This document shows, in pieces, positions 4,905-15,693 of a DNA stretch of 18,962 nt (its first letter is position 1; each line of letters begins with the position of its first letter). The stretch comes from a virus: the UHGV virus genome UHGV-0190812; one strand, written 5' to 3'. The notes under the pieces were generated by a model. The model was not told the origin of the DNA. It saw only the letters and a list, made by a program, of their open reading frames with translations, and ran no database searches. Made by a program: the position numbers and the translations under genes.

Positions 4905-5111
4905 TTAGTGATTCAGACCGTTGCCGCGTCCGTCGAGAAAAACTTCCACGAGCAAGTCACGGGTATAAGTGCGCTCAATGCCGCGATGCAGATAAAGTCG
5001 TCCGCGTAAATTAGCTGATGCAGTCCAGGTACCATCTTTGCGTTTGACCAGCATTCCTGGCATGACCGCACCGCGATTAACGGTCTGCGTTCCGTAATGT
5101 TGATGAACCAT
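4905..5111 (-). CDS. Kil-family (KilR-like) cell-division inhibitor, putative
   Basis: In-frame ATG at 5111 preceded by AGGAG (5-6 nt spacer) gives 68 aa: MVHQHYGTQTVNRGAVMPGMLVKRKDGTWTASAN...VFLDGRG. This resembles Rac KilR as I recall it (HHFGTDE...TYIASAN...VFLGRDG). It is the first gene downstream of pL. The track ORF extends to 5195 with a weaker RBS. Confidence 0.5.
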   Translation of the reverse strand: MVHQHYGTQTVNRGAVMPGMLVKRKDGTWTASANLRGRLYLHRGIERTYTRDLLVEVFLDGRGNGLNH

Positions 5112-5388
5112 AAAAACTCCTGCCCGTAAGCTGGGCTGCTGAACATATAAAGACTTCTGCGCGTATTCAGGCGGTGGATGGCCGCCGGTTGTCATAACTA
5201 AGCCGCCTCGTTGAAGCGACTAAGGTATGAAATGTTGAGTTGATTTCAGCTGGTCACACCGACGTTCACGCGTCCGTTTCATCCCTCGCACTCCCCGAAG
5301 CCTGCTGAAATTCAAGCTGCGGATCTAAGCGGTCATCGCAACGGTGAATCAGGTGGTTGCCGTATCGTTGTGTTGTTGCGATATGGTG

Positions 5389-5431
5389 ATAATAGCTATT
5401 GCTATTGGTGATATCAATACTTATTGCTATT
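5389..5431 (-). promoter_or_regulatory. pL-like promoter with OL operator repeats
   Basis: Minus strand TTGATA (5412-5417), 17-nt spacer, TATTAT (5389-5394). TATTGCTATT copies at 5397-5406 and 5422-5431, the same motif seen at OR. Confidence 0.45.
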
Positions 5432-5556
5432 AGTTGATGTGTTTTGATATTAAATGTTTGATAGCAAAAAGAATTAATTTTGTGACTTGCATCGCATAGC
5501 GATAACTGAAGTGAGGTTATGGTGGTTTTTTTAACGGTGTGTGTGATGAGGGGAGG

Positions 5557-5594
5557 GCAAAAGAAAACCCGGCACGGTGGCCGGGGGCTTTTTA
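5557..5594 (-). terminator. rho-independent terminator closing the repressor operon (tImm-like; bidirectional)
   Basis: Perfect 6-bp GC stem CCCGGC/GCCGGG (5568-5585) with 6-nt loop. On the minus strand it is followed by TTTTCTTTTG, 24 nt downstream of the 5618 stop; on the plus strand by GGCTTTTTA. Confidence 0.6.
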
Positions 5595-5617
5595 TAGTGT
5601 GTTAGGTAAATAGAATA

Positions 5618-6475
5618 TCAGCCTACTGTTCTAAAGATGAGAAGTGGTGTCATCCCATACGAATCACTTCCTCTACCAGCTTGTACCTTGACCATATCCA
5701 GGAAGGATTGTAATCCTGACTTGAGATCGTGTTCAGGGAAATCAGGGTTATTGATATTCTGATCTTGTACAGAATCTGGCAAGGCATCAATCAATCCAAT
5801 GACATGCCAGGTACCCGGTATGGTGCCACCATATTTTAAGGCTAAGTCATCAGGATTAATTGTTAAATATTCTTTATCAATAGACATCCACATCAGGTTG
5901 CCATTCTCATCAATAAAATCAACCTGGAGGATGTTGGGAACGATATTAATGAGTTTCTTAACTACACCAATGGTAAGCCCTGGAGATATCTCAATTTCAT
6001 CTGGGGTGAGTTTTCCTTTAAGCTTCGCTTTGGCTTTTGGGGGAAGGTTGACCGTGTTTAATTGTGCTTGGGCTATCTCACCAAAAATAGGCATAATTTT
6101 CTGAATAGTTGACACATCAAAAATGCGCATTTTTCCAACAGAATGAACAACTGAACCAAGATTCTCACCATTAAGTCCAGTTTTAATCATTCCTGCTTCA
6201 TCTAATTTATCGAGAAAATTAATTGGTAATGACCATGAAGCGTCGAAAGTTTTCTCTTGCGAATGTGTTAAGGTGTCGTCAGTCCCCACTTTTCCTTTAA
6301 GAATCTTGACGCTCAATTCAACGGATTTATTAGATTTATCTGTGTCAGAAGTAGTTTGTTTTACGCTCGTCACTACACCAGCATTGTGAAGCTGGGCTGT
6401 GAGGGAGCTAACGCGTACACGGTCTATGTAAAGAAAATCAAATAGTGAATCTGTGCTTTGTTGTTCGAGCTCCAT
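5618..6475 (-). CDS. hypothetical protein, 285 aa (304 aa if started at 6532); repressor-linked cargo, function unknown
   Basis: Long minus-strand ORF between the cI-like gene and pL. ATG at 6475 with AGAGAGGA about 8 nt upstream; alternative ATG at 6532. Appears AT-rich by eye relative to flanking modules. No motif I can assign (no kinase, nuclease, ATPase or TM signatures noted). Confidence 0.6.
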   Translation of the reverse strand: MELEQQSTDSLFDFLYIDRVRVSSLTAQLHNAGVVTSVKQTTSDTDKSNKSVELSVKILKGKVGTDDTLTHSQEKTFDASWSLPINFLDKLDEAGMIKTGLNGENLGSVVHSVGKMRIFDVSTIQKIMPIFGEIAQAQLNTVNLPPKAKAKLKGKLTPDEIEISPGLTIGVVKKLINIVPNILQVDFIDENGNLMWMSIDKEYLTINPDDLALKYGGTIPGTWHVIGLIDALPDSVQDQNINNPDFPEHDLKSGLQSFLDMVKVQAGRGSDSYGMTPLLIFRTVG

Positions 6476-6617
6476 TTTGCCAATCCTCTCTAAATTTTTC
6501 TTTTTCCTCGCGAATTCTTTTTTGCTTTTCATCTATCTCATCGAAAAGTTGAATGAGTTCATCCACACCATGTGAAGGCGTCTCTGATTTCACTTTCTTC
6601 AAAATTTTCTTGAACAT
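6438..6617 (-). CDS. small charged hypothetical protein (59 aa), possible partner of the downstream 285-aa protein
   Basis: First ATG of the 6438-6695 ORF (MFKKILKKVKSETPSHGVDELIQLFDEIDEKQKRIREEKEKFREDWQNGARTTKHRFTI). Overlaps the 5' end of the next gene in another frame. No convincing Shine-Dalgarno. Confidence 0.3.
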   Translation of the reverse strand: MFKKILKKVKSETPSHGVDELIQLFDEIDEKQKRIREEKEKFREDWQNGARTTKHRFTI

Positions 6618-6766
6618 GATGATTTTCCATAGAGAACTGACTGTACAAATTATGTTCTCTTTGTCACATGAAAGCAACTGCACCAGGACAAGCAAAGTGT
6701 GTCTCCAAAGATCGCTTTAATCACATGTTACAGCTTTTTTGTCAGCTTTGGTCCCATGAAGACGCT

Positions 6767-7459
6767 TTACCCATGCTTCCTGTATGTCTGCGGCATGCTC
6801 CCAATAACCTTACCGAAGATGAACACCCGGTTCATCTCGTCTTTCTCGATCGGGTCCCACGGTGAGTAGCTCTTGTTATCAGAGATAACCAGCAGCTTAT
6901 CCTTCATCATTTGCAGGCGCTTTACATGGGCTGTGTCGTCGTACAGAAACGCATAGATACCATCACCGTCGAAAGATTTAACCGTGATATCAACGAACAG
7001 CAGATCACCTGGTTCGATCGTTCCTGACATGCTGTCACCACGCACGTTAATGATGCGGATATTTTCCGCCTTCCTGCCATCGAACATGTGACGAGCATCG
7101 TCAAACGAGTACTCAACCGAGCGTAGAACTTCTACAAACTCACGGTTGATTACACCCGGCCCGGCACTGACTTCTATATCAAGAACGTCAATCTTGAAGT
7201 ATTTTGAATGGCTGACAGCAGGCTTCCCTGATTGTTGACCGTCATTTCTCATCGGGCCTATGCCTGATGAGAGCCATTCTGTTCGAACACCCAATGCATT
7301 AGCTATTTCAACAATTTTTGTTGAGCCGCGCGCGTTGCCGCTTGTCAGTCTCCAGATTGTGGGTTGAGCTACGCCAGACGCCTTTGCAAGAGCGCCTTGA
7401 GACATTCCAGATTGTTCCATCGCTAGGTTTAAGCGATCAGCAAGAGTTTCTTTTTTCAT
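6767..7459 (-). CDS. cI: CI-like prophage repressor (HTH N-domain plus S24 LexA-like autopeptidase C-domain)
   Basis: HTH segment (MSQGALAKASGVAQPTIWRLTSG); Ala-Gly cleavage site (EVSAGPG), Ser in GDSMSG and Lys in HVKRL consistent with RecA-stimulated self-cleavage. ATG at 7459 sits right after a pRM-like promoter, giving a near-leaderless mRNA as in lambda; the track start at 7495 is a TTG inside the promoter. Confidence 0.85.
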   Translation of the reverse strand: MKKETLADRLNLAMEQSGMSQGALAKASGVAQPTIWRLTSGNARGSTKIVEIANALGVRTEWLSSGIGPMRNDGQQSGKPAVSHSKYFKIDVLDIEVSAGPGVINREFVEVLRSVEYSFDDARHMFDGRKAENIRIINVRGDSMSGTIEPGDLLFVDITVKSFDGDGIYAFLYDDTAHVKRLQMMKDKLLVISDNKSYSPWDPIEKDEMNRVFIFGKVIGSMPQTYRKHG

Positions 7460-7461
7460 AA

Positions 7462-7560
7462 GTTTTAATTTATACGCTTGCGTATTGATGGTCAAAACAC
7501 GTTTTGCTATTGCTTGAATTAATACGCATTGCTATTATTCATTCATTGCAATACCAATAG
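7462..7560. promoter_or_regulatory. OR region: divergent pRM-like and pR-like promoters with operator repeats
   Basis: pR (+): TTGCTT 7510-7515, 17-nt spacer, TATTAT 7533-7538. pRM (-): TTGACC (rc of 7490-7495), 16-nt spacer, ATAAAT (rc of 7468-7473). TTGCTATT motif at 7504-7511 and 7529-7536 overlaps pR -35/-10; a third palindromic site CATTGCAATA near 7544-7553. Confidence 0.5.
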
Positions 7561-7563
7561 GAA

Positions 7564-7797
7564 TTGATAATGACAAATCAAACCATTCAACTCGCAATCA
7601 GTATTACAGGTAGTCAAAAACGACTGGCAGATCTATGCGGTGTAGCCCAACCCACAGTTTGGCGTTGGCTACACGGTGGCGGAATTGATGCCCGCTATGT
7701 AATGAAAATTGTCTCAGCCACTGGTGGAAAGATTAAACCAGCAGATATTCGTCCCGACCTCGCACCATTGTTTAACGCGAGTAATTCTGCCGCCTAA
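7564..7797 (+). CDS. cro: Cro-like repressor (YdaS/Cro HTH family)
   Basis: 77-aa ORF immediately downstream of pR; HTH segment SQKRLADLCGVAQPTVWRWLHGG; AGGA Shine-Dalgarno. Confidence 0.75.
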   Translation: MIMTNQTIQLAISITGSQKRLADLCGVAQPTVWRWLHGGGIDARYVMKIVSATGGKIKPADIRPDLAPLFNASNSAA

Positions 7798-7821: not shown

Positions 7822-8367
7822 ATGACTATGCAACCACTTACATACCAACAGACTAGCGGATTTAGCCCGACTGCGGTGATAAATCGTTCTCAAACAAAAC
7901 AGGCGCCAGGCCACGAAAAAATCCGTGATGCCGTTCGCGCCTGGTCGGCTGCAGATAATCAGGATGTTGTTGCCGCACTCATTGTGAATGAGTATCGGGA
8001 GCAGGGCGGCGGCACCATCGATTTCCCTGATGATGTCAGCCGTGCACGCCAGAAGCTGTTCCGCTTCCTCGATAACAAATTCGATTCTGAAAAATACCGA
8101 AATAACGTGCGTGAACTGACCCCGGCAATTCTGGCGGTACTACCGCTGGAATATCGCGGCCACCTGGTTGAGCAGGATAGCTACATGGCTCGGCTGGCTG
8201 AAATGGAAAAGGAACTCAGTGAGGCAAAACAGGCTGTCATTCTCAACGCACCACGCCACCAGAAACTGAAGGAGATGAGTGAAGGCATTGTGTCGATGTT
8301 TCGTGTGGACCCGGATTTGGCTGGTCCACTGATGGCGATGGTCACCACCATGCTGGGGGCAATATGA
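7822..8367 (+). CDS. YdaT-family protein in the cII position (putative lysis-lysogeny regulator)
   Basis: 181-aa ORF between cro and O. EYREQGGG and PAILAVLPLEYRGHL segments resemble Rac YdaT as recalled from memory. Stop overlaps the next ORF (ATGA). Confidence 0.6.
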   Translation: MTMQPLTYQQTSGFSPTAVINRSQTKQAPGHEKIRDAVRAWSAADNQDVVAALIVNEYREQGGGTIDFPDDVSRARQKLFRFLDNKFDSEKYRNNVRELTPAILAVLPLEYRGHLVEQDSYMARLAEMEKELSEAKQAVILNAPRHQKLKEMSEGIVSMFRVDPDLAGPLMAMVTTMLGAI

Positions 8368-11111: not shown

Positions 11112-11224
11112 TTGACGACATTATTTATCCGGCGCTATATTCTGTGCGTTGCCGCAAAATCGGCACACGGGATTGGCGTCCCGGAATACTACTCAACGCA
11201 TACCGCGTTAAGCGGTTTTTTTAT
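11112..11224 (+). promoter_or_regulatory. promoter plus ~75-nt structured leader ending in an intrinsic terminator (attenuator or small RNA) upstream of the Bro-N gene
   Basis: TTGACG (11112-11117), 18-nt spacer, TATATT (11136-11141). Downstream stem-loops TGCCG/CGGCA and CGGGA/TCCCG, then ACCGC-GTTAA-GCGGT followed by T(7) at about 11202-11222. Confidence 0.35.
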
Positions 11225-11378
11225 GCGCTAAGCACGGCTACGCCCAAATTATGGTGGGCTGTGTGAGGGCTTCTTCGGGAGCGCCGGGTTTGAGTAGCCG
11301 GTTACGCCAACCTTGCACAGTTCACCACCAGTCGATTGGCGTCGTTGGTGGTGATGGTTAACCTGATGAGGTGATACT

Positions 11379-13264: not shown

Positions 13265-13347
13265 GTAGATCAATCGTATCATTTTCGCAAAATTGATTCT
13301 CCGTAATCAATTCGCCATAATTGTATCACCGGAGCCTGAACAACTTC

Positions 13348-15564: not shown

Positions 15565-15693
15565 AACGCTTATATTTCATGTAAATCTGATATCGTCGCC
15601 ATAGCTTTGTTGGTCGACAAAGAATTAACAGCCTCGCCATCGTGCGGGGCTTTTACTTTACATGCTGTGAACACAAAAAAAGTAACTTTTATG

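Follow-up and report, generated by a model that had tools for sequence, protein, structure and literature searches.

Predicted 16-bp dyad operators of a cI-like repressor in the early control region of prophage genome UHGV-0190812

The stretch of DNA analysed here (18,962 base pairs (bp) of the virus genome UHGV-0190812, hereafter the window) contains the early control region of a lambda-like prophage, in which the cI-like repressor gene (6767-7459) lies between two operator regions, OL and OR, carrying copies of the word TTGCTATT. Comparative sequence analysis makes it very likely that these repeats are the right halves of 16-bp imperfect two-fold-symmetric operators bound by dimers of the cI-like repressor (CI). 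Cro, encoded at 7570-7797, very probably recognises the 16-bp operators as well. Their consensus is AATAsN-N4-NsTATT (s, G or C), with a conserved core ATAs-N6-sTAT. OR contains three such dyads at a 25-bp pitch within 7460-7569, overlapping the predicted promoters PRM and PR, and OL contains two strong dyads of the same sequence type over the predicted promoter PL, on the far side of cI and 2.1 kb from OR. An initial annotation had placed the repeats in operators flanking the cI-like gene, on the outward promoters, and the comparisons below support this placement.

Repeated words and symmetric sites in OL and OR

The words described initially, TATTGCTATT at 5397-5406 and 5422-5431 and TTGCTATT at 7504-7511 and 7529-7536, are found by direct reading exactly where they were reported, and both pairs do show the 25-bp spacing. 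TTGCTATT has exactly four matches in the window, all on the plus strand (starts at 5399, 5424, 7504 and 7529). Its chance mean is 0.95, and four or more copies occurred in 3 of 200 shuffles. Since the word had been picked after looking, a word-independent test was run for any 8-mer that forms two pairs of equal spacing (8-40 bp) separated from each other by more than 200 bp. In the window TTGCTATT alone does so, and no such word arose in 500 first-order Markov simulations, so the pattern is real and not due to chance. The observation of repeated words is therefore confirmed as non-random.

The operator unit, however, is not the 8-10 bp repeat of the initial annotation. It is a 16-bp dyad, of which TTGCTATT represents the right half together with two central bases. 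A position weight matrix (PWM) built only from 20 sites of relatives was scanned over the roughly 19,000 positions of the window. The base counts of these 20 sites give the consensus AATAGCAATTGCTATT; positions 2-5 (A, T, A, G/C) and the mirrored positions 12-15 are nearly invariant, and positions 6-11 vary. The six best positions in the window are OL1, OR1, OL2, OR2, 7550-7565 (14.3) and OR3, the mean best score in shuffles being 11.3 bits. The sites and the predicted promoters are as follows.

OL1, 5391-5406: AATAGCTATTGCTATT (AATAGC-TATT-GCTATT); overlaps the PL -10 by 4 bp; PWM 21.8 bits, the best in the window
OL2, 5416-5431: AATACTTATTGCTATT (AATACT-TATT-GCTATT); 25 bp from OL1, overlaps the PL -35 by 2 bp; PWM 19.7
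Degenerate candidate OL3 slot, 5436-5451: GATGTGTTTTGATATT; 20 bp from OL2, site-like in the right half only; below the top 15 PWM matches
Conserved block, 5460-5475: GATAGCAAAAAGAATT; weak operator-like site or rightward-promoter remnant (TTGATA...); PWM 7.9
OR3, 7471-7486: TATACGCTTGCGTATT (TATACG-CTTG-CGTATT); overlaps the PRM -10 and spacer, on the cI side; PWM 13.3
OR2, 7496-7511: AACACGTTTTGCTATT (AACACG-TTTT-GCTATT); abuts the PRM -35, overlaps the PR -35 by 2 bp; PWM 15.0
OR1, 7521-7536: AATACGCATTGCTATT (AATACG-CATT-GCTATT); 25 bp from OR2, overlaps the PR -10; PWM 20.9
Candidate fourth OR site, 7550-7565: AATACCAATAGGAATT; an (A/T)ATAC half-site joined to the cro Shine-Dalgarno sequence; PWM 14.3, ranking fifth in the window
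Predicted PL, 5417-5389, minus strand, leftward: -35 TTGATA (5417-5412), 17-bp spacer, -10 TATTAT (5394-5389)
Predicted PRM, 7495-7467, minus strand: -35 TTGACC (7495-7490), 17-bp spacer, -10 TAAATT (7472-7467), from the promoter scan
Predicted PR, 7510-7538, plus strand: -35 TTGCTT (7510-7515), 17-bp spacer, -10 TATTAT (7533-7538) within the extended -10 TGcTATTAT (7530-7538)

The overlap with promoter hexamers initially ascribed to the repeats holds for the full 16-bp sites but not for the 10-mers at OL, which miss both hexamers of PL (-10 at 5389-5394, -35 at 5412-5417). OR has three conserved sites, one of which had been missed: OR3 lacks TTGCTATT, although it contains a perfect inverted repeat (ATACGC-TT-GCGTAT) and lies exactly 25 bp to the left of OR2. 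The third OR site proposed initially, CATTGCAATA, is indeed present at 7544-7553. It is nevertheless variable among homoimmune prophages (CATTGTAATA, CGTTGCAATA, CATTTCAATA) and is not conserved in the Salmonella phages ST104 and BTP1 or in the Klebsiella phage ST11-VIM1phi8.2; only its last bases overlap a conserved ATAC half-site adjoining the cro ribosome-binding site.

At OL the third slot is degenerate, so the prophage has two good OL sites. Relatives have a strong OL3 at 20 bp from OL2 (AATAGCAATTGCTATT in Enterobacter, GATAGCAATGGCTATT in the Klebsiella phage), as do many of the species genomes described below, often as the perfect palindrome AATAGCAATTGCTATT; the slot reads GCTATT in two IMG/VR variants. 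A third OL site on the 25-bp register (5441-5456) finds no match.

Conservation, specificity and alternative readings

A scan of IMG/VR with CI residues 1-74 yielded more than 561 relatives, from which 80 loci were kept, all of them 100% identical over these residues. The usable loci number 77 at OR (37 distinct sequences including the window) and 66 at OL (40 distinct, likewise including the window). Across these loci there is essentially no variation in the PRM hexamers, the PR -10 or the outer bases of the operators. Substitutions at OR concentrate in the OR2-OR1 spacer (7512-7518) and after OR1 (7539-7541, 7549), and those at OL fall mainly between OL1 and OL2 (5407-5412) and just beyond OL2 (5432-5437); they also accumulate in the centres of OR1 and OL2. 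In particular, the outer bases of OL1 are nearly invariant (66 loci), OR2 is nearly invariant as a whole and variation in OL2 is mostly limited to the central bases. Invariant outer bases combined with variable spacers and centres are the pattern expected, at the level of sequence, for 16-bp dyad operators. Degnan and co-workers (2007) reportedly saw a similar pattern in wild phages of lambda immunity.

A wider sample is provided by species-representative genomes, in which 31 Enterobacterales loci encode repressors that all carry the helix AQPTIWR. They include Kluyvera, Citrobacter, Enterobacter, Yokenella, Pluralibacter, Raoultella, Buttiauxella, Proteus, Providencia, Serratia and Morganella, among others. 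In 29 of these loci there are three sites, spaced 24-25 bp from one another and set at a constant distance from the cI start. Within these 29, OR3 reads TATA....GTAT in every case (12 distinct versions), OR1 is nearly constant (six near-identical versions) and OR2 has an invariant right half, GCTATT, and a variable left half (14 distinct versions). As it keeps only its right half across genomes, OR2 looks intrinsically weak and, by inference from lambda, probably depends on its neighbour.

Other relatives separate dyad symmetry from the repeated word. OL1 of ST104, BTP1 and the Klebsiella phage reads AATAGC-ATTG-AGTATT or AATAGC-AATG-AGTATT (AATAGCATTGAGTATT in ST104, AATAGCAATGAGTATT in the Klebsiella phage): these sites retain the left half AATAGC and the dyad symmetry but no longer have the word on the same strand. 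The 25-bp O1-O2 spacing is kept in these three phages, in Fraca and in ASU11, and OR1 of phage Fraca is the perfect palindrome AATAGCAATTGCTATT.

CI is a protein of 230 amino acids (aa) with Peptidase_S24 (Pfam, 1.3e-18) and HTH_3 (1.8e-6) domains. Its N-terminal helix-turn-helix (HTH) is 434-like, with the recognition helix Q32-P-T-I-W-R37, and the nearest structures are those of 434 repressor N-terminal domains (phmmer against PDB: 1sq8, 2r63 and 1per, E 1.6e-5 to 6.8e-5, or up to 1.2e-4 with 1r63; residues 6-67). A predicted cleavage site at Ala99-Gly100 and the residues Ser143 and Lys180 are present, G100, S143 and K180 being invariant in the alignment. Cro, a YdaS family protein of 75 aa (Pfam YdaS_toxin, 9.6e-15), has a recognition helix nearly the same as that of CI (GVAQPTVWRW and GVAQPTIWRL, respectively), and Cro proteins co-vary with immunity type in the same way as CI.

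Two relatives bear directly on specificity. CI of the heteroimmune PhiR34_1 is identical to that of the window from about residue 85 onwards and in the stretch 47-59; its HTH differs (SQAAIQKIETG; helix SQAAIQK). Collinearity between the DNA of PhiR34_1 and the window stops at 5383 and resumes at about 5474, and both the OL segment between these points (5384 to about 5473) and OR are replaced by repeats of the AACAAC/GTTGTT type. Conversely, CI of ASU11 has an unrelated C-terminal domain (39% overall identity) and the same recognition helix, and ASU11 keeps AATAG-N6-CTATT sites with the 25-bp O1-O2 spacing at both OR and OL. In sequence terms the two cases form a double dissociation, consistent with operators and DNA-binding domain being exchanged together as an immunity module. 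The initial proposal that the repeats track immunity specificity is upheld by their replacement together with the recognition helix in PhiR34_1.

Several points weigh against this interpretation or limit it. It is built on comparative sequence analysis. The test with the PWM is not fully independent, the training set having the OR2 and OR3 sequences in common with the window. The overlapping PRM and PR elements confound the conservation seen in OR3, in the flank of OR2 and in the right half of OR1. PR itself was read from the sequence: the promoter scan missed it because the -35 matches only 3 of 6 positions. The left half of OR2 is poorly conserved, and OR2 may be a half-site reliant on its neighbour. 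Finally, OL2 has an overlapping alternative register, 5410-5425 (GATATCAATACTTATT) against 5416-5431 (AATACTTATTGCTATT), displaced by 6 bp; the two registers possibly give alternative spacings of 25 and 19 bp to OL1. In Enterobacter-type relatives, both OL2 registers score well (AATATCAATACGTATT, AATACGTATTGCTATA; positions 4982-5003 of locus L096).

Different readings of the repeats can be weighed against the same observations. That the repressor reads tandem, same-orientation words, with two copies of (TA)TTGCTATT in each of OL and OR and CATTGCAATA as a further OR site, as first annotated, has in its favour four exact words on one strand at equal spacing, and the central TATT of OL1 and OL2, which stretches the identity within the window to 10 bp. 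This reading is nonetheless highly improbable. On that strand ST104, BTP1 and the Klebsiella phage have AGTATT or GATATT, the reverse complement being kept in the other half, and the central TATT varies among homoimmune prophages (TATC, TATA, CACT, TGTT). Moreover, OR3 is conserved at the 25-bp register without containing the word, CATTGCAATA is variable and is absent from these three phages, and an HTH and S24 repressor of the 434/lambda type is established to bind as a symmetric dimer. Promoter sequence alone, duplicated or convergent, is a barely credible source of the likeness between OL and OR. PL and PR do have GCTATTAT in common at the -10, the right half-sites of the O1 sites are embedded in the -10 regions of both promoters and AT-rich promoter DNA readily yields ATA or TAT words. 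Such an origin would not account for OR3, for O2 sites that lie upstream of the -35, for the distal half-sites, for the exact 25-bp register or for the strong OL3 palindromes of relatives; nor would it explain why PhiR34_1, still with a sigma-70 host, has the whole set exchanged along with the recognition helix.

It also seems very unlikely that the sites are bound mainly or only by Cro, or by another regulator such as a YdaT-like protein, with CI acting elsewhere. The near identity of the Cro and CI recognition helices is compatible with such a role for Cro, as are the footprints of both PaaR2 and YdaS over the same intergenic region in CP-933P (PMC8630535). However, where the CI N-terminal domain has been swapped, the half-sites and the CI recognition helix have changed together, and operators shared by CI and Cro are the rule in lambdoid switches, so that binding by Cro is more a complement than a rival to binding by CI. 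As for a YdaT-like protein, a repeat of the YdaT type, TTGATAATGACAAATCAA, is found at 7564-7581, over the cro start codon, with a single mismatch from the CP-933P YdaT consensus operator TTGATT-N6-AATCAA (PMC9986795). This consensus is unrelated to AATAs-N6-sTATT. A perfect copy of the YdaT-type repeat, TTGATTCTCCGTAATCAA, occurs at 13293-13310, and the cro/ydaT junction, where the YdaT operator lies in CP-933P, has no match with up to 3 mismatches.

The set of symmetric operators may extend beyond OR1. The candidate site at 7550-7565 follows the predicted PR start closely, spanning +6 to +21 of the transcript at a distance of 29 bp from the OR1 centre, and it scores like OR2 and OR3. An (A/T)ATAC half-site is found 28-30 bp from OR1 in 28 of the 29 species genomes (the remaining locus ends earlier), and the bases after it vary. 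Because the right half of the candidate is the cro Shine-Dalgarno sequence, its conservation is confounded. A functional fourth OR site at this position, which might let CI or Cro stop early elongation or the translation of cro, is conceivable though rather doubtful; separately, and just as tentatively, the OR2-OR1 spacer may tune PR strength.

Promoters, proposed switch and neighbouring genes

PL matches the consensus at 10 of 12 positions (consensus scan), and its TTGAT and -10 are kept among homoimmune prophages. The PRM hexamers are invariant across phages of E. coli, Salmonella and Klebsiella, and positions 7460-7466 vary. At PR, the TTG of the -35 and the whole of TGCTATTAT are conserved among homoimmune prophages, and OR1 and OR2 overlap this promoter exactly as OL1 and OL2 overlap PL. 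The extended -10 may explain the tolerance of variation in the PR -35 region. When prophages whose repressors are identical in the N-terminal region are compared, no other stretch varies nearly as much as 7512-7518, in the OR2-OR1 spacer (GCTTGAA, GCTTGGA, GATTGGA, GTTATGA, GCCATGG and others). This hypervariability might reflect selection for differing PR strengths, and hence induction set-points, among homoimmune prophages. Since the predicted PRM start is at about 7460 and direct reading finds no Shine-Dalgarno sequence before the cI ATG at 7459, a leaderless cI mRNA is predicted. Transcription from PR and from PL is predicted to begin near 7545 and near 5382, respectively.

The sites, their symmetry, spacing and conservation and their co-variation with the recognition helix are observed features, from which a course for the switch can be proposed; binding, order of occupancy, cooperativity, activation, looping and transcription starts are inferred. 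By analogy with lambda, repressor on the O1 and O2 sites would cover the -10 and -35 of PR and PL and keep the prophage silent. On OR2 it would adjoin the PRM -35 and could stimulate transcription of the leaderless cI mRNA, and OR3, over the PRM -10, could serve negative autoregulation or shut-off of cI by Cro. A repressor octamer could link the OL and OR pairs across the 2.1 kb between them, and induction of the prophage would follow from RecA-stimulated self-cleavage at Ala99-Gly100.

The surrounding genes and signals are listed from left to right.

Leftmost, minus strand: exo-bet-gam and a small open reading frame (ORF), followed by an intergenic region with a strong leftward promoter and then the bidirectional terminator
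5585-5568, minus strand: intrinsic terminator, a bidirectional hairpin closing the cI-cargo operon ahead of OL
5618-6532, minus strand: cargo gene downstream of cI, DUF6414 / phrog_9699; probable true start ATG at 6475
6438-6617, minus strand: small ORF of 59 aa between cI and the DUF6414 gene; phrog_29688, E 3.1e-19, full length
6767-7459, minus strand: cI-like repressor gene (230 aa), upstream of the two cargo ORFs on the same strand
7460-7569: cI-cro intergenic region, 110 bp
7570-7797, plus strand: cro (75 aa), YdaS family
7822-8367, plus strand: gene of a YdaT-family protein in the cII position, followed on the same strand by the O and P replication genes

The terminator has six G-C pairs followed by a T-run on both strands (terminator scan of 5568-5585), and it is kept in ST104, the Klebsiella phage and PhiR34_1. 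The DUF6414 gene matches Pfam DUF6414 (E 2.4e-10) and phrog_9699 (E 3.6e-73, the match beginning at residue 21). Neither this gene nor the 59-aa ORF has a significant PADLOC match (the 59-aa ORF is marginal, E 0.008) or an NCBIfam match, and INPHARED phage records match the flanks but not the cargo at 5618-6617 (megablast). The slot between cI and OL holds BstA in BTP1, a 933W-like annotated gene (orf23) in ST104, a ParA-like gene in the Klebsiella phage and HipA or GevT genes in PhiR5_1 and PhiR47_2. The OL-OR distance, 2.13 kb in the window, ranges from about 1.35 to 2.7 kb among homoimmune prophages because the cargo differs. The varied cargo and variable distance make the slot look like a defence or cargo hotspot, and the cargo of the window is a candidate defence gene.

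Between the terminator and OL, the interval 5477-5567 is the remnant of a small rightward ORF, of which only the 5' and 3' ends survive in the window and PhiR34_1. It is intact in relatives, where it is annotated as FumD-like (BTP1) or as a 67-aa hypothetical protein (Klebsiella phage) or is left unannotated (ST104). The block at 5460-5475 is conserved in these three phages, in which the small ORF follows it. In relatives it resembles the -35 region of a rightward promoter for the ORF that is deleted in the window, and the conserved block TTGATAGCAAAA(A/T)GAATT upstream may be the former promoter of this ORF. The block lies within, or at the right edge of, the OL segment replaced in PhiR34_1, the junction being ambiguous (about 5470-5477).

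Downstream of PL, the conservation of the 190-nucleotide leader extends across homoimmune and heteroimmune phages alike. A put-like or nut-like structured RNA was considered in this leader (5196-5383, minus strand); the fold is no better than shuffles (z -0.70) and there is no Rfam match. The first ORF after PL (4913-5146 or 4905-5195) has neither an arginine-rich motif nor a match in Pfam, PHROG or NCBIfam that would point to an N-like antiterminator. Terminator-like hairpins occur further downstream of PL at 4962-4946 and 4880-4863. Elsewhere in the window, Rfam matches above the gathering score are isrK (11150-11222), C4 antisense RNA (11247-11332) and isrJ (15580-15653).

Immunity type and relation to known switches

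Sequence comparison assigns the window to the immunity type of the Salmonella P22-like phages ST104, BTP1, SE1 and ST160. The HTH segment MSQGALAKASGVAQPTIWRLTSGNARGSTKIVEIANALGV is identical. ST104 has identical OR3 and OR2 sites, an OR1 that differs by one central base, and homologous OL1 and OL2 sites with the same 25-bp spacing; in BTP1, OR2 is identical and OR3 and OR1 differ by one and two bases, respectively. Against this, CI is 86% identical overall and Cro 69% identical to that of ST104, the backbone of the window is lambda-like (exo-bet-gam, O-P-ren) rather than P22-like, and the cargo after cI is different. ST104 is listed as a repressor specificity type of its own (Villafane et al., PMC2629481). 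Of 5,426 complete E. coli genomes, 719 have the immunity region.

The comparison with known immunity groups thus gives a match to the ST104/BTP1 type and none to the others: a pattern search for the operator consensus of 933W, HK022, CP-933P, lambda and P22 finds none of them in OL or OR. Like the window, 933W and HK022 have lambdoid CI repressors with multiple dyad operators. Three OR and two OL sites are known in 933W. This layout, together with the 933W-like gene of ST104, had suggested 933W immunity, but the 933W operator is 15 bp long with a different consensus and other conserved bases, and its repressor binds non-cooperatively (PMC3317979). HK022 immunity, suggested by the annotation of ST104, is likewise rejected: the C-terminal domain of HK022 CI resembles that of the window by eye, whereas the N-terminal domain and the operator region are unrelated. 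CP-933P of E. coli O157:H7 has in common with the window a module with a YdaS-type Cro and a YdaT-type CII equivalent, a leaderless repressor mRNA (predicted here) and OL copies. Its OR is reported to contain four equally spaced palindromes (PMC8630535), paralleling the candidate fourth site described above. Its immunity is set apart by operator sequence, the half-site GTTTAGTAA lying in unrelated 18-bp palindromes (PMC8630535).

With lambda itself the resemblance is one of architecture. In both, cI and cro diverge around a tripartite OR, a second operator cluster lies over PL about 2 kb away and accessory genes stand between cI and OL; at the lytic promoters O1 covers the -10 and O2 the -35, and PRM has OR2 next to its -35 and OR3 over it. 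Both also have a leaderless cI mRNA (a prediction for the window) and a repressor of the S24 self-cleaving type, recognised here from its domains and residues. Lambda operators have centre-to-centre spacings of about 24/23 and 24/20 bp; in the window the OR spacings are 25/25 bp, and relatives with an intact OL3 have OL spacings of 25/20 bp. The operators are, however, 16 bp long instead of 17 bp and unrelated in sequence, the DNA-binding domain is 434-like, Cro belongs to the YdaS family, a YdaT-family protein takes the cII position and no N-like gene follows PL. The window also differs in its degenerate OL3 and in the extra conserved half-site by the cro ribosome-binding site.

The likeness to 434 is one of recognition. 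Operators of 434 are 14 bp long, ACAA-N6-TTGT. In addition to the nearest structures for the CI N-terminal domain, 434 shares with the window similar recognition helices in CI and Cro and a 4+6+4 geometry, with four conserved outer bases per half and six less conserved central bases. The specificity is different: the helix is QPTIWR in place of QQSIEQ and the half-site ATA(G/C) in place of ACAA, with an extra conserved flanking A/T bringing the site to 16 bp. Immunity of the 434 type was therefore rejected, neither ACAA...TTGT nor the helix QQSIEQ being found.

A literature search for the motif or for described operators of BTP1 and ST104 gave nothing relevant among the papers it covered, which does not prove that no description exists; a paper mentioning PhiR68.2 concerns nuclease defence and not operators. 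The window carries an ordinary lambda-type operator set of a widespread, apparently uncharacterised immunity type, and it adds nothing conceptually new to the lambda paradigm. The type is common, occurring also in the Salmonella phages ST104, SE1 and BTP1 and in prophages of many Enterobacterales. The symmetric consensus and the coordinates of the sites make the switch directly testable, and the consensus should allow homoimmunity to be predicted from sequence. The pairing of the helix QPTIWR with the half-site ATAs would provide another natural variant of the 434-type recognition problem.

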